DNA of 38,464 nt from a virus (Duplodnaviria; Heunggongvirae; Uroviricota; Caudoviricetes): IMG/VR virus record IMGVR_UViG_2698536454_000007; one strand, written 5' to 3'. Below the pieces are notes generated by a model, which saw only the letters and a program-made list of their open reading frames with translations, had not been told where the DNA came from and ran no database searches. The position numbers and the translations under genes were made by a program. Of this stretch, positions 1,131 to 17,166 are shown in pieces (position 1 is the stretch's first letter; each line of letters starts with the position of its first letter).

Positions 1131-1183
1131 CGGCGGCAGAGCAGTCACGGAGTAAAACTGATACCGCCAAACGTCACCAGAAA
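1131..1183 (-). ncRNA. dicF: DicF small regulatory RNA (about 53 nt, processed from the dicB operon transcript)
   Basis: Reverse complement of 1131-1183 reads TTTCTGGTGACGTTTGGCGGTATCAGTTTTACTCCGTGACTGCTCTGCCGCCG followed by TTTTT, matching the DicF sequence as I recall it at 52 of 53 positions. It lies between ydfC-like and dicB as in Qin. Ends are approximate. Confidence 0.7.
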
Positions 1184-6239: not shown

Positions 6240-6553
6240 CGCAATGCGAAGTTAAAGAGGCAGCCTCATATTTATCAGAGCTGGTGTACGTCCAATACAG
6301 GAGGTTATCGTGCTGGTTCTCAAATGCGCGCTGGCTATTGCGGCTGTAGTGGCAATTTATTGTCTTGCTATTGTTCTTATGGATCGCCTTTCTGATTGAT
6401 TTTATATTGGCGAGGTGACGGGAGTTAAGTAGAATTGCTGCGGGTGCTTGAGGCTGTCTGCCTCGGGCATGCCACCGTAAGGCAGACAGAGAAAAGCCCC
6501 AGTTAACATTACGCGTCCTGCAAGACGCTTAACATTAATCTGAGGCCCAATCT

Positions 6554-6766
6554 ATGCTTCACAAACGTAGGTTAGCCTCTTACGCGCCGAAAGGCAAGGA
6601 GAAGCAGGCTATGAAGCAGCAAAAGGCGATGTTAATCGCCCTGATCGTCATCTGTTTAACCGTCATAGTGACGGCACTGGTAACGAGGAAAGACCTCTGC
6701 GAGGTACGAATCCGAACCGGCCAGACGGAGGTCGCTGTCTTCACAGCTTACGAACCTGAGGAGTAA
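6554..6766 (+). CDS. mok: Mok-like reading frame, an in-frame N-terminal extension of hok (70 aa)
   Basis: ATG at 6554 with GAGG upstream; same frame and stop as hok, as in chromosomal mok/hok loci. Confidence 0.5.
   Translation: MLHKRRLASYAPKGKEKQAMKQQKAMLIALIVICLTVIVTALVTRKDLCEVRIRTGQTEVAVFTAYEPEE
6611..6766 (+). CDS. hok: Hok/Gef-family type I toxin (51 aa), HokD/RelF-like
   Basis: Product MKQQKAMLIALIVICLTVIVTALVTRKDLCEVRIRTGQTEVAVFTAYEPEE: a single transmembrane helix plus the conserved Hok C-terminal region; AGGAG upstream; fold-back stem (CTGTCTGCC...GGCAGACAG) in the 5' leader at 6457-6490. Confidence 0.85.
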   Translation: MKQQKAMLIALIVICLTVIVTALVTRKDLCEVRIRTGQTEVAVFTAYEPEE

Positions 6767-8642: not shown

Positions 8643-9002
8643 ATGCGTATAGAGTTTGTTTTGCCTTACCCGCCGACGGTGAACACCTACTGGCGACGTC
8701 GTGGCAGCACATATTTTGTGTCAAAAGCCGGTGAGCGTTATCGCCGGGATGTGGCACTTATTGTTCGCCAGCAGCGGCTGAAATTAAACCTGTCCGGAAG
8801 GCTGGCGATAAAGATTATTGCAGAGCCACCGGATAAGCGCCGCCGCGACCTGGACAATATCCTGAAGGCACCACTGGATGCGCTTACGCATGCCGGACTA
8901 CTTATAGACGACGAGCAGTTTGATGAAATCAATATTGTGCGCGGTCAGCTCGTTTCTGGTGGGCGGCTGGGCGTGAAGATTTACAAAATTGAAAGTGAGT
9001 GA
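8643..9002 (+). CDS. rusA: Holliday junction resolvase RusA
   Basis: 119 aa; motifs PPTVNTYW and RRRDLDNILKAPLDALT are characteristic of RusA; AAGAGG Shine-Dalgarno. Confidence 0.85.
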   Translation: MRIEFVLPYPPTVNTYWRRRGSTYFVSKAGERYRRDVALIVRQQRLKLNLSGRLAIKIIAEPPDKRRRDLDNILKAPLDALTHAGLLIDDEQFDEINIVRGQLVSGGRLGVKIYKIESE

Positions 9003-9010
9003 GCATAAAT

Positions 9011-9565
9011 ATGATATACCCGGAAATTACAGGCAAAAGCGGTGAGCATTTACGCCTGAAAACGCTGGAAAGTGTCTGGATCCAGGGGAAACTGCGTATG
9101 TGGGGGCGTTGGTCGTATATTGGCGACGGTAAGACGGGAAATATGTTCAACCAATTACTGATCTCTAAAAAGCTGACAAAAACGGCAATTAACGAGGCGC
9201 TCCGGAGGATGAAAAAAGCGGGTCTGGACAAACCTGAACTTGAGGCTTTTTTGCGGGATATGATCAACGGCAATCAAAAAAGCTGGCTGGCACATTGTAC
9301 CGATTCAGAGGCGTTAATAATCGACAGGGTTATTGGTGAAGTACTGGCAGGTTATCCCGGGCTGCTCAATGTTCTGAGTCAGCGTTATGTGGGGCGGGGG
9401 ATGACTAAGCGCAAAATGGCTGAACTGCTGAATGATGCACATCCGGAATGGAGTTTAAGAACCTGTGAAAGACGCATTGAGCATTGGCTAAAGGTGGCAG
9501 AATTTATTTTGTACAAACCAATGGTTATGGCTTTTGGTATAGAGAAAAAAGTTATTGCTTTTTGA
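9011..9565 (+). CDS. Late-gene antiterminator Q-like protein
   Basis: Position (after rusA, immediately before an intrinsic terminator and the late-operon cargo and lysis genes) is the canonical Q slot; family assignment is by synteny. Alternative GTG start at 8999. Confidence 0.55.
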   Translation: MIYPEITGKSGEHLRLKTLESVWIQGKLRMWGRWSYIGDGKTGNMFNQLLISKKLTKTAINEALRRMKKAGLDKPELEAFLRDMINGNQKSWLAHCTDSEALIIDRVIGEVLAGYPGLLNVLSQRYVGRGMTKRKMAELLNDAHPEWSLRTCERRIEHWLKVAEFILYKPMVMAFGIEKKVIAF

Positions 9566-11236: not shown

Positions 11237-11312
11237 GGCCCTTTAGCTCAGTGGTGAGAGCGAGCGACTCATAATCGCCAGGTCGCTGGTTCAAATCCAG
11301 CAAGGGCCACCA
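11237..11312 (+). tRNA. ileZ: tRNA with CAU anticodon (Met or lysidine-modified Ile2; ileZ-like)
   Basis: Cloverleaf: acceptor GGCCCTT/AAGGGCC, D-arm AGCTCAGTGGTGAGAGC, anticodon loop CTCATAA, T-arm GGTTCAAATCC, 3' CCA. Confidence 0.85.
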
Positions 11313-11319
11313 TCACATA

Positions 11320-11396
11320 CCGCTATTAGCTCATCAGGAAAGAGCGCCAGCCTTCGAAGCTGGCTGCGCGGGGTTCAAGTCCCCGATGGCGGTCCA
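11320..11396 (+). tRNA. argN: tRNA-Arg (anticodon UCG)
   Basis: Acceptor CCGCTAT/ATGGCGG, anticodon stem-loop GCCAG-CCTTCGAA-CTGGC, T-arm GGTTCAAGTCC, CCA end. Confidence 0.85.
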
Positions 11397-11409
11397 TTAT
11401 CTGCATCAT

Positions 11410-11486
11410 GCGTTGTTAGCTCAGCCGGACAGAGCAATTGCCTTCTAAGCAATCGGTCACTGGTTCGAATCCAGTACAACGCGCCA
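11410..11486 (+). tRNA. argO: tRNA-Arg (anticodon UCU, reads AGA)
   Basis: Acceptor GCGTTGT/ACAACGC, anticodon loop CCTTCTAAG, T-arm GGTTCGAATCC, CCA end. Confidence 0.85.
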
Positions 11487-11529: not shown

Positions 11530-11974
11530 GTCTCACAATTCAGACGGTTGACAGTTGTCTGTTTTGCGGGGAGTTTGTTAAAAGAAACTGGCATGGTGAA
11601 TCCCCCTGTGCGGAGGGGCAATCAGCGAGTAGGTATATGGGATAATCGCGGATTCAGGTGCTGGTACTGAATTCACCGGGAGGCACCCGGCACCATGCAA
11701 TGGCACATAGCGCCACTCTCCAGCCCCTCTCCGGAGGGGCTTTCTTATGGACAAAAAAAGCCCGCGCTGGGAGACGCGGGCGGCAAGGAATAAACAACAA
11801 AACGTGAAGTAATATTTCAGCTGGCGAATAATATCCGACAGTAATCACTCTGCGCAATAGCGCGGCCTTTTTCGTATTGCGGGCTGTTGTCTCTCTTCTG
11901 CCATTGTCCTGTAACTTCCGGACTTCAGCCCGCTCCTCATTTTACTCACAATATTATCCCGGCCGGGAGGATTC

Positions 11975-13837
11975 ATGGCATTTAAACACTATGATGTTGT
12001 CAGGGCGGTATCGCCGTCAGACCTTGCTGATGCACTTGCTCAAAAAATTCGTGAAGGATGGCAACCATACGGCGGGCCGTTTTCTTCGTATACGGATGAT
12101 GGCGCAGCACTTATTCAGGCGATTGTCGCAGAAGGTGATGTGGTCGTCAGTGGTGCAACTGAGCCGGAGTGGTACTACGTCATCGTACTGGCCGGGCAGT
12201 CTAATGCCATGGCTTACGGTGAAGGGCTTCCGCTTCCGGATTCATACGATGCGCCCCATCCGCGCATTAAGCAACTGGCCCGTCGTAACACAGTGACTCC
12301 CGGTGGTGAAGTATGCGTATTTAACGACATCATTCCTGCTGACCATTGTCTGCATGATGTTCAGGATATGAGTACGATTAATCATCCCCGGGCTGACCTG
12401 AGCAAAGGGCAGTACGGCTGTGTCGGACAGGGCTTACATATTGCCAAAAAACTGCTTCCGTATATCCCTAATAATGCGGGGATCCTGCTGGTACCATGCT
12501 GTCGTGGTGGTTCGGCATTCACCCAGGGCACGGAGGGGACATTCAGCGAGTCCACGGGGGCCAGTCAGGATTCGGCTCGCTGGGGAGTGGGTAAGCCGTT
12601 ATATCAGGATCTGCTTTTCCGCACGAAGGCAGCATTGCAGAAAAACCCGAAAAACGTTTTGCTGGCGATATGCTGGATGCAGGGGGAATTCGATATGACG
12701 AATGCCAGTTACGCCCAGCAGCCAGCAGCATTTCTTGCAATGGTACAGCAGTTCCGTGCTGACCTTGCCGGGCTGGCGGCGCAGTGTCACGGTGGAAGTC
12801 CGGCATCAGTCCCCTGGATTTGTGGCGACACGACATACGCGTGGAAACAAGAACACGGTACGCAATATGAAGTGGTATATGGTGCATATAAAGGTAAAGA
12901 ATCCCAGCAGATTTATTTTGTTCCCTTTATGACCGATGGTAGCGGAGTTAATACACCGACAAACAACCCGTCAGAAGATCCTGATATTGTCGGGTCTGGT
13001 TATTACGGTTCGGCATCCCGAACGAACAAAAACTGGGTATCATCAAATCGCCCGACGCATTTCAGCTCATGGGCGCGTCGTGGCATTATTCCCGATCGTA
13101 TGGCAACCGCTATTCTGAACGCAGCCGGGCGCACCTCAGCCTTCATTAGTGGTAAGGCACCGGAAATCAAACCCTCGCCCGGCGGCGACACGCCATCGGG
13201 GCCGTCTGAAGATGCATCCATACGCACAATCTCCCTGTTGCCGACAGCCGGAGACGCTGCTGCGCAGGGCTGGAGCATTAAGAATGGCGGAATTCAGTTG
13301 TCAGATGGTGTATTTAAGATCACCAAGCAGAGCAATAAAGCCTGGTCCCTGACGCGCCCGGTGGATGACGCAGTCTCCCTGCTGACACGGGGTGGCAGAC
13401 TGAGCTGTAAGTTTCGCCTGTCAGGCGCACTGACCAACAACCAGTTCGGTCTGGGAATTTATCTGTATACCGATGTAGCGTTACCTGACGTCGTGGCGAT
13501 GACCGGGACTGGTAACCCGTTCCTGATGTCGTTCTTCACCCAGACCACAGACGGCAAACTGAATCTGATGCATCACAAGAAAGCAGGAAACACAAAGTTG
13601 GGCGAGTTCGGGAATTACAGTAACGACTGGCAGACGCTGGAGCTGGTGTTCACCGCCGGCAGTGCCACGGTTGCTCCGAAACTGAATGGAGTGGCTGGCC
13701 CGGCATTCCAGGTCATAAAAGACAGTCTGACAGTGGGACTAAATGCACTGACGCTGACGGATATTACCAAAAATGCAACGTATGGCGTTGAGATAGAAAG
13801 TCTGGTGCTGGAGATAAATGCACCGGCATCATCATAA
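11975..13837 (+). CDS. nanS: Prophage NanS-p-type sialate O-acetylesterase (YjhS family), 620 aa
   Basis: SGNH/SASA signature [14 protein letters not shown] after an N-terminal DUF1737-like region; GGGAGG Shine-Dalgarno; occupies the slot just downstream of stxAB in Stx phages. Confidence 0.85.
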
Positions 13838-13986
13838 AAAGTGAGCCAGTCAAATGGAAAGTATCGTTAAACTCACCGGTAGTGTCAGTGGGTCGTCTGA
13901 GACGCCTGCATGAGTTATCAGAGCCATCAGTACTTAACTGGTGGCTTTTTTATTGTTGTCAGCTTCCGGATAACGGGAGACGGGGT

Positions 13987-14202
13987 ATGTACCAGATGGA
14001 AAAAATCACAACAGGTGTGTCATACACCACGTCAGCGGTGGGAACGGGCTACTGGTTCCTGCAGTTGCTGGACAGGGTTTCCCCGTCTCAGTGGGCGGCA
14101 ATAGGCGTGCTGGGGAGTCTGCTGTTTGGGCTGCTGACATATCTGACTAACCTGTATTTCAAAATCAGAGAGGACCGTCGTAAGGCGGCACGGGGAGAGT
14201 AA
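13987..14202 (+). CDS. S: Class II pinholin, S21-type, with dual-start motif (Met1 and Met4)
   Basis: [71 protein letters not shown], 71 aa; GGGAGACGGGG Shine-Dalgarno. Confidence 0.85.
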
Positions 14203-14206
14203 TTCA

Positions 14207-14551
14207 ATGACTCAAAACTATGAACTGATTGTGAAAGGGATCCGCAATTTTGAGAATAAAGTTACGGTAACTTTAGCGTTACGGGACAAAAAACGCTTTG
14301 ACGGTGAAATTTTTGACCTGGACATCTCGCTGGACCGTGTTGAAGGTGCCGCGCTGGAGTTTTATGAGGCAGCAGCCAGAAGGAGCATCAGACAGGTCTT
14401 CCTGGATGTTGCTGCCGGGTTATGTGAAGGGGATGAGCAGTCACCGGAAAAGCGCCCCATAATTTTAGAGGCGCAGGGTGTGTGGATAACCTACAAAGGA
14501 AAACTGCCGGGAAGAATTACTGGTTCACTGAAGACTCCGCCGAAATGGTAA
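14207..14551 (+). CDS. YdfR-like protein (114 aa) inserted between holin and endolysin
   Basis: GGGGAGAG Shine-Dalgarno 7 nt before ATG, 4 nt after the holin stop; position matches ydfR between essQ and rrrQ in Qin. Confidence 0.6.
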   Translation: MTQNYELIVKGIRNFENKVTVTLALRDKKRFDGEIFDLDISLDRVEGAALEFYEAAARRSIRQVFLDVAAGLCEGDEQSPEKRPIILEAQGVWITYKGKLPGRITGSLKTPPKW

Positions 14552-14789
14552 TTTCACCAGCATATTTTTCTTCCAGTAATGCCGCCAGCCACTTGAAAGA
14601 ATTTTGTTGTTCCTGGGACCATTTGGGGTTGCGTGACTCAAGCAGAAGCGATGCCAGTGTTGGTTGCATTTGTTCTCTGGGAATTGAGAAGGCCAGATAT
14701 GAAAATGCAACAGTGAGAGCATTTACATCATCCCGAAGCCTGGAAATGCAGTCGAGCAACTCCTGTAGAGAAATGGTGTTATTGTCCAT
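14517..14789 (-). CDS. Hypothetical protein (90 aa) encoded antisense within the lysis cassette
   Basis: Minus-strand ATG at 14789 with GAGGA 6 nt upstream and a TACAAT -10-like hexamer just upstream; 3' end overlaps the YdfR-like gene by 35 nt. Confidence 0.5.
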   Translation of the reverse strand: MDNNTISLQELLDCISRLRDDVNALTVAFSYLAFSIPREQMQPTLASLLLESRNPKWSQEQQNSFKWLAALLEEKYAGEITISAESSVNQ

Positions 14790-14894: not shown

Positions 14895-15428
14895 ATGAAC
14901 GCAAAAATCAGATACGGCCTGTCGGCTGCCGTTCTGGCGCTGATTGGTGCAGGGACGTCTGCGCCTGAAATCCTCGACCAGTTTCTTGACGAAAAAGAAG
15001 GTAACCACACCACGGCATACCGTGATGGTGCGGGGATCTGGACCATCTGCCGCGGTGCCACCCGAGTGGATGGTAAGCCTGTCGTCCCGGGTATGAAGTT
15101 ATCGAAGGAAAAGTGCGACCAGGTTAACGCCATTGAACGTGATAAGGCGCTGGAGTGGGTGGAGCGCAATATTAAAGTACCGCTGACCGAACCCCAGAAG
15201 GCGGGTATCGCGTCATTTTGTCCTTATAACATTGGCCCCGGTAAGTGTTTCCCGTCTACGTTTTACAGACGGATTAATGCAGGTGATCGAAAAGGTGCCT
15301 GCGAAGCGATTCGCTGGTGGATTAAGGACGGTGGCAGAGACTGCCGTATCCGCTCAAATAATTGCTACGGTCAGGTATCCCGGCGAGACCAGGAAAGTGC
15401 ACTGGCGTGCTGGGGAATTGACAGATAA
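14895..15428 (+). CDS. R: SAR endolysin (T4-lysozyme-like, GH24), RrrD/RrrQ-type
   Basis: N-terminal signal-anchor-release segment YGLSAAVLALIGAGTSA followed by the catalytic region EGNHTTAYRDGAGIWTICRG; the sequence matches recalled DLP12 RrrD almost throughout. Confidence 0.9.
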   Translation: MNAKIRYGLSAAVLALIGAGTSAPEILDQFLDEKEGNHTTAYRDGAGIWTICRGATRVDGKPVVPGMKLSKEKCDQVNAIERDKALEWVERNIKVPLTEPQKAGIASFCPYNIGPGKCFPSTFYRRINAGDRKGACEAIRWWIKDGGRDCRIRSNNCYGQVSRRDQESALACWGIDR

Positions 15429-15520
15429 GCAGAATATTTTGCTGAAAAATGACGTTGGCCAACGCGGGCGGATAACACGAAATCCTGCGAACTGGCAAAA
15501 ACTAAGTGAATAAAAGTAAA

Positions 15521-15560
15521 ACCCCGTTTGTTGGCCGCAAACGGGGTTTTGTGTTTCTGA
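15521..15560 (+). terminator. Strong intrinsic terminator downstream of the endolysin gene
   Basis: 11-12 bp perfect stem AAACCCCGTTTG...CAAACGGGGTTT followed by TGTGTTTCT. Confidence 0.7.
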
Positions 15561-15583
15561 CCTTGAGTAAGGCAAGGGAGAAC

Positions 15584-15766
15584 ATGGGAAAGTATAAACG
15601 AATTCTGTTGAGATTGACTATGAAAAACGGCCTTGAACTGAAAGCGCCTGTAACTGATGACGTCAGCAGAGCGCTGGCTTTTGCTATTAAGTGGGTGGCG
15701 GTCGGTATTGCTGTGTCTCCGATGCTGTATGGGCTGGCAAAACTGGTCATTGCGTTGAAATCGTGA
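15584..15766 (+). CDS. Small hypothetical protein (60 aa) with a C-terminal hydrophobic segment
   Basis: AAGGGAG Shine-Dalgarno 4 nt before ATG 15584; the ORF-track entry at 15506 is a longer version that runs through the terminator hairpin. Confidence 0.4.
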   Translation: MGKYKRILLRLTMKNGLELKAPVTDDVSRALAFAIKWVAVGIAVSPMLYGLAKLVIALKS

Positions 15767-15778
15767 AGAGGATTAAGC

Positions 15779-15910
15779 ATGTCAGACAAGCTCATAACGC
15801 TGGCGAAGATCCTCTGTGTAATCGTCGGCATTTCATTTTCACTAATGCTGGTTGCTATTTGCTTTGCCACTGCCTGGCGCGTCTTAACTTTGTCATGGCT
15901 GGTGGGGTGA
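15779..15910 (+). CDS. Small hydrophobic membrane peptide (43 aa)
   Basis: GAGGA Shine-Dalgarno before ATG 15779; single predicted transmembrane helix ([26 protein letters not shown]); its stop overlaps the Rz Shine-Dalgarno. Confidence 0.35.
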
Positions 15911-15917
15911 GGGGGAT

Positions 15918-16385
15918 ATGAACCGTGTTCTGTGTGTGGTGATTATTGTCCTGCTGGTAGCCTGTGGTGTGCTTAGTCTGGGGCTGAATCATTACCGCGA
16001 TAACGCCATTACCTACAAAGCGCAACGCGATAAAAAAGCCAGTGAGCTGAAGCTGGCGAACGTGACAATTACTGATATGCAGGTACGCCAGCGTGATGTC
16101 GCTGCACTTGATGCCAGATACTCGAGGGAATTAGCCGATGCGAGAGCTGAAAATGAAACTCTGCGTGCTGATGTTGCCGCTGGTCGTAAGCGCCTGCGCA
16201 TCAACGCCAACTGTCCAGGCTCCTTGCGTAAAGCCCCCATCACCTCCGGCGTGGATAATGCAACCGGTCCCCGACTGGCAGAAGCCGCTGAACGGGATTA
16301 TTTCATCCTCAGAGAACGGCTGATGGCAATGCAGAAGCAACTGGAAGGAGCACAGGAATATATCCGTACCCAGTGTATACCGTGA
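15918..16385 (+). CDS. Rz: Inner-membrane spanin Rz
   Basis: N-terminal transmembrane segment followed by coiled-coil-like sequence; GGGGGA Shine-Dalgarno; contains an embedded +1-frame Rz1. Confidence 0.85.
16138..16323 (+). CDS. Rz1: Outer-membrane lipoprotein spanin Rz1, embedded in Rz
   Basis: Lipobox LVVSAC followed by a proline-rich region [19 protein letters not shown]; resembles recalled RzoD. Confidence 0.75.
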
Positions 16386-16851
16386 TGTTTTGTTATGAAG
16401 GTGTTACTGGTAACGTTAAGGTAATTTAACAAAGAGTCAGTTCCGGACTTTATAGTGTGCTCAGTTCATGGACAAAAACGATTTCTGTGATAAATATTTT
16501 GAATATTATTTACAGGTAAATGGAGTGGGGCGCATGGATAGAAATATTACAATAGAGTATGAAGTATATGCCCGTATTGTATGGGCAGAGAAGGCAAAAA
16601 CACGGTAATTCCGTGTGTTGCCATGATACCTGATTGGCAGAATAGTTGTTTGGTTTTGAGTATATAGTCAGCGTTTTTTGTTCAGTAATTGCCCCCTCAA
16701 AAAATAATAAAATAAGGTGATTATTTTTGTTTATTATTTAGTTTTTTTTTGTGTGTTATTTTATTGTTTTTGCGTGGTTTGTTTTTTATTGTTATTTCAT
16801 TAAGGGAAGGTAAATTCAGGATGGCAGTCTGTAGATAATCGGAGGTCACTT

Positions 16852-17166
16852 ATGCTACATGATCACGTGGCAGAATGTCTGGAGAAAAAAGGACTGTACC
16901 GGAGAGCAGCTGAACGATGGGCAAAAGTGATGGTACAGCTAAGTGATGACCAGAAAAGAAAAGTGGCGGCACAGAAACGAGCAGAGTGTTTGCGTAAGGC
17001 GCGCCGGACTCCGGTTTCACCGGTGAACCTGACCGAAATAAAACAAGCGGTCAACAGACTACATTCTGAGTTGGGAATGGGATTTGAAGAGCGGCGGGTA
17101 TTCCGACGATATAAAGGGACAGGAGAACAGAATACGTCCGGAAACGCGCGGTCAAAAAAATGCTAA
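16852..17166 (+). CDS. PerC-family (Pch-like) transcriptional activator, 104 aa
   Basis: GGAGG Shine-Dalgarno 6 nt before ATG; N-terminal motif ECLEKKGLYRRAAERWAKVM fits the PerC family signature as recalled; preceded by a long AT/GT-rich tract. Confidence 0.55.
   Translation: MLHDHVAECLEKKGLYRRAAERWAKVMVQLSDDQKRKVAAQKRAECLRKARRTPVSPVNLTEIKQAVNRLHSELGMGFEERRVFRRYKGTGEQNTSGNARSKKC

Follow-up and report, generated by a model that had tools for sequence, protein, structure and literature searches.

Why would the late operon of a lambdoid prophage hold two very small genes between its endolysin gene and its spanin gene, with a terminator-like hairpin in front of them? The question is raised by the window analysed here, a stretch of 38,464 nucleotides (nt) of tailed-phage DNA (Caudoviricetes; IMG/VR record IMGVR_UViG_2698536454_000007), which is the late region of an Escherichia coli lambdoid, Shiga toxin (Stx)-phage-like prophage. 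The gap between the endolysin gene R and the spanin gene Rz measures 489 nt and contains, in order, the hairpin and two open reading frames (ORFs), termed ORF-A and ORF-B. By their pattern of sequence evolution, both ORFs are genuine conserved protein-coding genes, evolving as coding sequence, and their products are predicted to be small single-pass inner-membrane peptides. To judge from the aligned loci, there is more to the hairpin than ending the endolysin transcript unit: it is part of the ORF-A module and moves with this module into unrelated contexts. The explanation favoured here, held with moderate confidence, is a terminator-guarded accessory membrane-peptide cassette that would be expressed only from the Q-antiterminated late transcript. 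The features on which the argument turns are as follows.

14895-15428, plus strand: R21-type endolysin gene (R), product with a signal-anchor-release (SAR)-like N-terminus (PF00959 Phage_lysozyme, E 1.9e-25; RefSeq: lysozyme)
15429-15517, plus strand: untranslated sequence 3' of R, shared and conserved among R21-type cassettes
15518-15550, either strand: GC-rich hairpin with an A-run 5' and a T-run 3', intrinsic-terminator-like both ways; left end of the ORF-A module
15551-15583, plus strand: T-rich tail and 33-nt leader with the Shine-Dalgarno (SD) sequence of ORF-A, conserved in all ORF-A contexts
15584-15766, plus strand: ORF-A, 60 amino acids (aa), ATG at 15584 to TGA, SD within AAGGGAGAAC; RefSeq WP_001303555.1 (hypothetical protein)
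15779-15910, plus strand: ORF-B, 43 aa, ATG at 15779 to TGA, SD AAGAGGA; RefSeq WP_053901576.1 (hypothetical protein)
15918-16385, plus strand: Rz (i-spanin) gene (PF03245, E 2e-46)
16138-16323, plus strand: Rz1, embedded in Rz (PF06085, E 4.1e-19)

This layout bears out the first-pass annotation, which had described two short ORFs before Rz, one of 60 aa with a C-terminal hydrophobic segment and one of 43 aa with a single transmembrane helix, each preceded by a Shine-Dalgarno sequence. The genes are closely spaced, with 12 nt between ORF-A and ORF-B and 7 nt between ORF-B and Rz.

For the coding analysis, 143 related loci were gathered from IMG/VR and public records, and distinct alleles were analysed. 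Among the 34 distinct alleles of ORF-A, the variable sites fall 14/2/30 by codon position, the ratio of nonsynonymous to synonymous substitution rates (dN/dS) is 0.24 and there are no stops; third-position variation is evenly spread, codons 1-12 included. The other five frames of ORF-A give dN/dS values of 0.49 to 5.8, mostly with stops. ORF-B, represented by 28 distinct alleles, has a codon-position pattern of 22/12/26, a dN/dS of 0.27 and likewise no stops. For both ORFs, dN/dS is lowest in the annotated frame; conservation extends to start codons, SD sequences, lengths and stops, and substitutions are conservative in the database clusters (118 for ORF-A and 94 for ORF-B). The first-pass annotation had named absence of coding conservation in related phages as the finding that would overturn it, and these values point the other way.

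Certain points weigh against a coding reading. Retrieval of the loci by protein similarity biases the ORF-A dN/dS downward (in part of the collection, ORF-B was not used as bait), in some ORF-A alleles the first ATG is lost and the called product has 48 aa, the codon-position pattern of ORF-B is weaker than that of ORF-A, and the wobble-coincident antisense frame of ORF-B is also open, with a dN/dS of 0.32. This open antisense frame is, by its sequence behaviour, best read as an expected artefact of shared third codon positions, and it is not maintained elsewhere. It is hardly credible that both ORFs are open by chance within non-coding spacer sequence. They are indeed short and have no Pfam or NCBIfam family, but their dN/dS values contrast with 0.5-5.8 in the other frames (the antisense frame of ORF-B excepted), and their conserved translation signals and lengths, their matches to PHROG families and the ORF-A homologues under Salmonella enterica and E. 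marmotae names all speak against chance.

Two further candidate products were tried and rejected. A 122-aa antisense ORF (15502-15870) shares its third codon positions with ORF-A and ORF-B, has a higher dN/dS, carries stops in 3 of the 34 ORF-A alleles and is broken where the frames of ORF-A and ORF-B differ. In the window, ORF-A and ORF-B lie in the same reading frame, with one TGA and four sense codons between them; the frame relation required for a fusion by stop-codon read-through is not conserved (in locus L086 the starts are 200 nt apart).

ORF-A matches phrog_1115, a family of unknown function, over residues 1-60 (E 6.6e-42). Its net charge is +7, with eight Lys/Arg residues ahead of the C-terminal hydrophobic stretch, and hydropathy analysis gives one transmembrane segment at residues 38-56 (Kyte-Doolittle (KD) 1.90). 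The AlphaFold2 (AF2) model predicts two helices, one at residues 3-14 and a long one at residues 23-59, with a loop at KNGLELKA between them, and has a mean predicted local distance difference test (pLDDT) score of 76. The conserved part is formed by the C-terminal 38 residues (VTDDISRAxAFAIKWVAVGIAVSPxLYGLAKLIIALKS), and variants of 47, 48, 60, 66 and 71 aa differ by swapped N-termini. A profile search over 1.8 billion representative proteins returned only 22 relatives, so the family is narrow; these share a plan of MKNGLE-x-DAP, an amphipathic stretch and a transmembrane helix, with two alternative ends (...ALKS or ...AIRWW), and the architecture is held down to about 30-40% identity. A scan of species-representative genomes with the ORF-A alignment gave no confirmed relative.

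ORF-B matches phrog_4906, also a family of unknown function, over residues 1-43 (E 4.3e-23). One transmembrane segment is found at residues 11-29 (KD 2.86), and the AF2 model predicts a single helix spanning residues 2-42 (pLDDT 90). The SD sequence of Rz sits in the final codons of ORF-B, and the 7-nt spacing to Rz is the same here and in Sakai Sp9, where ORF-B stands next to Rz as ECs_5722; ORF-B is thus probably translationally linked to Rz. Scans of Pfam, NCBIfam and PADLOC (E up to 1) gave no match for either ORF.

The hairpin reads AAAACCCCGTTTG-TTGGCCG-CAAACGGGGTTTT, with an A-rich run before it and GTGTTTCTG after it. The first-pass annotation had reported a perfect 12-bp hairpin and a T-tract after the endolysin gene; both elements are present, and the stem is longer than claimed, at 13 perfect pairs. 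As RNA, the plus strand folds at -21.3 kcal/mol (z -4.28, equalled by 0/200 shuffles) and the minus strand at -18.7 kcal/mol (z about -4). A U-rich tract lies 3' of the stem on both strands (plus tail UUUUGUGUUUCU, with the stem base counted; minus tail UUUUACUUUUAUUC), and the combination of a stem stabler than chance with an adjoining U-rich tract makes the element a predicted intrinsic terminator. A consensus terminator scan reports it on the minus strand only, because the stem extension of the scan absorbs the plus-strand T-run; the plus-strand tail is UUUUGUGU if the 9-bp GC core is taken as the stem.

Homology between loci indicates where the module begins. The hairpin precedes ORF-A in 41 distinct upstream sequences, which represent at least four unrelated contexts, and homology across them starts at the A-run and stem of the hairpin. 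In the window, 94% identity to H-19B and many Stx2c phages is seen over the 133 nt that follow the stop codon of R, while other cassette types have unrelated sequence upstream of the hairpin in place of the R 3' stretch. The inner stem is group-specific (GTTTG/CAAAC, GGCTG/CAGTCC, GATTG/CAGTC) yet pairing is kept, and nearly all variants fold. A formal covariation count on a MAFFT alignment found the nine outer pairs invariant and compensatory changes in one pair (23-37); this count is too low for the inner stem, as a bulged variant is shifted by one column. The T-run is kept in most variants and is absent in L132-type loci, which retain the stem.

The R-Rz gap is filled differently in related cassettes.

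K-12 Qin (essQ-ydfR-rrrQ-rzpQ): no R-Rz gap; rrrQ and rzpQ overlap
H-19B and Stx2c phages: R 3' stretch and hairpin as in the window, followed by a distinct 45-aa peptide with the end IRWW (phrog_6632)
Sakai Sp9: R, an antirepressor gene, the ORF-B homologue (ECs_5722), Rz
L132-type loci: four peptides in the R-Rz gap, of 50, 47, 49 and 57 aa
L076: ORF-A, ORF-B and a second ORF-A core in the R-Rz gap

The first-pass statement that the simplest cassettes have R directly followed by Rz is true of the homologous Qin cassette, and the comparison that it proposed shows the insert to be absent there and replaced by other contents in H-19B, Sp9 and the L132-type loci. The Stx-phage gaps (H-19B, Sakai Sp9 and 933W-like) resemble that of the window in their R21-type endolysin, 3' stretch and Rz. 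H-19B has the hairpin in common with it and differs in that the 45-aa peptide replaces both ORF-A and ORF-B, whereas Sp9 shares ORF-B directly before Rz and differs in that the antirepressor gene stands where the window has the hairpin and ORF-A. The L132 junction comes directly after the hairpin stem.

Apart from R21-type cassettes, about 40 loci carry ORF-A and ORF-B behind a wholly different cassette (Phage_holin_8, Phage_holin_3_7 and a GH108/PG_binding_3 endolysin), and other ORF-A/ORF-B loci come after a lambda-R-type endolysin region. More distant relatives repeat the design, between tail-gene neighbours in L146 and L143 and also in L147: L146 has an ORF-A-like peptide and a 32-aa ...ALRWW peptide upstream of the tape-measure gene, behind AGCCCCGAACTG...CAGTCGGGGCTTTT; L147 has two ...AIRWW peptides, each with its own hairpin; and in L143 the hairpin-peptide unit comes after the tail-fibre assembly gene. 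By this comparison the module is mobile, and the content of the R-Rz slot varies between phages.

In GH108-type cassettes a 60-aa lipoprotein (MKRKHWTHRTPRTAAKWALVAILVPFFLVGC..., phrog_7528, a family of unknown function) lies downstream in place of Rz (L086:3340-3522, and also L088, L089, L128, L129 and L142); no Rz-like gene was detected in these six loci. The sequence past the lipoprotein gene resembles the post-Rz region of Stx2c phages, and the lipoprotein may represent an outer-membrane lysis factor that has gone unrecognised.

Each of the two genes is common among prophages of E. coli, and ORF-B is so among Stx phages as well. The ORF-A/ORF-B segment was matched in 1788 of 5426 complete E. 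coli genomes (most of the segment in 1038), at up to 11 places per genome, O157:H7 strains included. Among 50,697 phage records, ORF-A occurs in 14 and ORF-B in 276; in all 276 ORF-B is full length and stands immediately ahead of Rz, and these records include phi24B, Min27, P27, PA2 and P13374, usually without annotation of the gene. At the ORF-A loci sampled, 121 have an adjoining ORF-B and 23 do not. Both genes are already in databases as hypothetical proteins, and literature searches found no paper on the two peptides. The points that appear to be new, as read from the sequences, are that the hairpin belongs to the peptide module, that the slot is variable and may hold peptide arrays, that the ORF-A family has two C-terminal types and that in Stx phages Rz is almost constantly accompanied by ORF-B, for the most part without annotation.

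Under the favoured explanation, ORF-A and ORF-B would make up a mobile accessory cassette that a lambdoid late operon may or may not carry between its endolysin and spanin genes. The simplest reading is that they are late genes, since they lie in a Q-dependent operon, have no promoter of their own and adjoin Rz closely. On the plus strand, the scan predicts no sigma-70-like promoter at 15300-15600, where the hairpin-to-ATG distance is just 33 nt, and the stretch from hairpin to start codon neither has room for a promoter nor contains a predicted one at the ORF-A locus or in the distant relatives L146, L147 and L143. Given a terminator-like left end and no promoter of their own, the peptides and Rz/Rz1 would need read-through by Q-modified RNA polymerase. 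Such polymerase, entering from the late promoter during lytic growth, would pass the hairpin, and the peptides and Rz/Rz1 would be made only then; the hairpin would meanwhile stop stray transcription by unmodified polymerase in the lysogen. In lambdoid late operons Q-modified polymerase ignores intrinsic terminators, hence late expression would proceed despite the hairpin. In the expected topology of ORF-A, the membrane would hold the C-terminal helix and the cationic N-terminus would face the cytoplasm, while ORF-B would be a bare transmembrane helix; both would enter the inner membrane during holin accumulation, and their likeliest role would be to act on it late in infection, tuning lysis timing or envelope breakdown. 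Q read-through, termination at the hairpin and the role of the peptides are all inferred, and a role in lysis tuning or envelope breakdown is plausible from gene position.

Several observations tell against this explanation. The L132-type arrays, with a stem and no T-run, suggest that termination can be dispensed with. On the opposite strand the hairpin looks just as much like a terminator, and it could instead be an RNA-stability element or a recombination linker. Furthermore, the peptides accompany three unrelated holin/endolysin sets and have relatives in tail regions, which argues against a partner-specific lysis role and weakens the case drawn from position; in particular, this independence of the lysis cassette weakens any function specific to the pinholin/SAR-endolysin pair.

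One near comparison among known systems is with the accessory membrane proteins of phage lysis cassettes. These include P2 LysA, P1 LydB and the T4 RI antiholin. Mu gp25, the releasin (PMC9239132), and BSPM4 ORF52 (PMC11657625) are likewise accessory membrane proteins of lysis cassettes. Such proteins are small, lie in the membrane, are encoded with holin, endolysin and spanin genes, are made late, are dispensable for lysis and adjust its timing or manner. Unlike them, ORF-A and ORF-B have no sequence similarity to any member of the group, are found with the three unrelated holin/endolysin sets and have relatives outside lysis cassettes. Neither ORF matches a holin Pfam family, and as regards holin or antiholin topology, ORF-A carries its transmembrane helix at the C-terminus and ORF-B lacks a charged tail. 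A spanin identity is also not indicated: the helix is followed on its C-terminal side by no more than about 4 residues in ORF-A and 14 in ORF-B, there is no lipobox, and Rz and Rz1 are encoded separately.

The leader between hairpin and ORF-A and the opposite strand across the start of ORF-A bear on a different possibility. In most variants, RNAfold predicts that GUGUU.CU and CCUUG of the leader pair with CAAGG and AGAACAU, which would occlude the ribosome-binding site; the leader pairs are nearly invariant, hence covariation is uninformative on this fold. On the minus strand, the window has a candidate site just inside the 5' end of ORF-A.

15591-15620, minus strand: weak promoter-like match TAGTCA-18-TATACT (9/12 in the scan), speculative

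Speculatively, transcription from this match could yield about 74 nt of antisense RNA with its 3' end at the hairpin. Matching minus-strand sites are seen in L146 (TAGTCA-18-TATAAT, 10/12) and at the second peptide of L147 (9/12), and there is no such match at the equivalent place in H-19B or at the first peptide of L147. Matches of 9-10/12 are thus present in three of five modules, where they are confounded with codons. In the four-peptide L132-type loci (L132:2745-2815), the stem is kept and GGGGGTGCATTTGACAAATC... stands where the T-run would be. A perfect TTGACA hexamer lies within this sequence, at a distance from the nearest -10-like hexamer that is too short for a standard promoter.

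On these elements a guarded toxin akin to a type I toxin-antitoxin system can be drawn up, in which ORF-A is toxic and an antisense RNA of about 65-75 nt covers its ribosome-binding site and start codon, ends at the bidirectional hairpin and silences leaky expression in lysogens until late transcription swamps it. We consider this quite unlikely. The small, cationic, hydrophobic peptide would suit it, as would the minus-strand terminator-like hairpin (tail TTTTACTTTTATTC), the promoter-like matches at equivalent places in the three modules, the predicted occluding leader fold and the recurrence, at times in tandem, of a unit of hairpin and small hydrophobic ORF. ORF-A and ORF-B also resemble hok/sok, shoB/ohsC and zorO/orzO in encoding hydrophobic peptides of 60 aa or fewer (60 and 43 aa, with one predicted transmembrane helix each), in a structured leader possibly hiding the ribosome-binding site and in a possible short antisense RNA ending at the hairpin. 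However, the promoter-like hexamers consist of conserved codons ((K/N)YK and LTM) and are therefore inseparable from protein constraint; synonymous sites within them vary as freely as others, with no extra constraint, and the total of promoter-like matches across the region is not above that in shuffles. Unlike type I systems, moreover, the peptides have no conserved toxin promoter, there being no plus-strand site and the upstream sequences being unrelated between contexts, and the antisense promoter is only putative. No described toxin or antitoxin family was recovered in Pfam or at Rfam gathering thresholds, at which nothing was found in the R-Rz region; sub-threshold matches at E up to 10 were terminator-like only, and the best sub-threshold match was ohsC, with 22.7 bits vs a gathering score of 50. 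Of the Hfq-bound RNA peaks published for Sakai, those that could be placed (in Sp4, Sp6 and Sp9) include none in an R-Rz gap. The fuller version of this idea, a mobile late-operon unit of enterobacterial phages that combines a bidirectional terminator, a leader hiding the ribosome-binding site, a toxic tail-anchored peptide and an antisense RNA ending at the hairpin, is distinctly doubtful. Were it true, the unit would hop from one late-operon slot to another, with the endolysin-spanin gap and tail-gene junctions as its sites, and would build up arrays; it would represent a new phage-borne family of type I-like guarded toxins, influencing lysis and, in Stx phages, toxin release.

Lysogenic conversion offers another route, whereby the peptides would be morons expressed from the prophage that benefit the host or block superinfecting phages, as HK97 gp15 does. 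Several lambdoid morons encode small envelope proteins, and HK97 gp15 is an inner-membrane exclusion protein. Like HK97 gp15, lambda bor and lom, the peptide genes form an extra late-gene insert absent from close relatives, and presence and absence differ at the same position among otherwise homologous cassettes (no gap in Qin; other contents in H-19B, Sp9 and L132). Relatives occupy classic moron slots, one between the tape-measure gene and a gene ahead of it and one after the tail-fibre assembly gene, and E. coli genomes very often contain the segment, at up to 11 places each. In the account of Juhala et al. (2000) relayed by PMC4104026, a classic moron is preceded by a promoter of its own, is followed by a terminator and is expressed from the prophage. 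Unlike these, ORF-A and ORF-B have no predicted promoter between hairpin and genes, and the terminator-like hairpin is upstream instead of downstream; in addition, the genes are packed tightly against Rz in the late operon and have no PADLOC matches, so that this reading is, in our estimation, unlikely. A further view, which we regard as rather improbable, takes the hairpin as the main feature, either a recombination linker or an RNA 3'-end or processing element stabilising the S-R message, with the small genes persisting as passengers of little or no function. It would agree with homology between unrelated contexts beginning exactly at the A-run and stem, with the invariance of the nine outer pairs, with the L132 junction right past the stem and with the free shuffling of slot contents. 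Against it stand purifying selection on both ORFs, the intactness of ORF-B in 276/276 phage records and an ORF-A family architecture that remains common at low identity.

The wider neighbourhood is that of a lambdoid late region. The order is Q, a DNA methylase gene, three tRNAs, a SASA-type esterase, an S21-type holin and YdfR/DUF1327; these are followed by a 90-aa gene on the minus strand, the R21-type lysozyme, Rz/Rz1, a PerC-family gene and the Nu1/gpA terminase genes. Q, the esterase, the holin, YdfR, R, Rz/Rz1, PerC and the terminase are all encoded on the plus strand. The H-19B homologue of the endolysin (177 aa) carries the annotation "similar to phage 21 R".

8999-9565, plus strand: Q antiterminator gene
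11975-13837, plus strand: SASA-type esterase gene
13987-14202, plus strand: S21-type holin gene (Pfam PF04971 match)

The holin-endolysin interval holds further inserts, namely YdfR/DUF1327 (14207-14551, plus strand) and the 90-aa gene (14517-14789, minus strand), which belongs to phrog_2411, a family of unknown function, and whose end overlaps that of YdfR/DUF1327 by 35 nt. Another terminator-like hairpin, of 12 pairs, lies at 13920-13948 in the esterase-holin interval, with no Rfam match there. The PerC-family regulator gene (16852-17166; PF06069, E 3.8e-44) stands just past Rz, its counterpart in Sakai Sp4 is pchA, and the sequence ahead of it (about 16640-16850) is very AT-rich, with many T-runs. 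Rfam matches above gathering score were STnc100 (139 bits, 11562-11752), the sok antitoxin RNA (116 bits, 6442-6616), which implies a hok/sok locus in the window, DicF (72.5 bits, 1131-1182, minus strand) and the three tRNAs (11237-11483).

Published small RNAs of enterohaemorrhagic E. coli (EHEC) were considered for the R-Rz hairpin and set aside, as those described map elsewhere. The esterase-holin interval, where the 12-pair hairpin lies in the window, is the position given in published work for the PasA/PasC small RNAs and the AsxR/AgvB anti-sRNAs; EcOnc33 and EcOnc35 map to other places. HnrS (EcOnc10-12) is located just after Rz in Sp9, on the opposite strand (EcOnc12: Sakai 1779522-1779569, minus strand); L148:5440-5820 covers the Sp9 stretch past Rz, and 16386-16850 of the window is not homologous to the Sp9 HnrS region.

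Lambdoid lysis cassettes are usually described as holin, endolysin and spanins. At the locus studied here, the endolysin-spanin junction is instead a variable slot for one to four tiny membrane-peptide genes, and a gene unit that begins with a putative terminator is an unusual arrangement. If the peptides are neutral passengers, the finding is an ordinary one. Shiga toxin release depends on phage lysis; if the peptides alter lysis timing or membrane integrity, burst size and Shiga toxin release would be affected.

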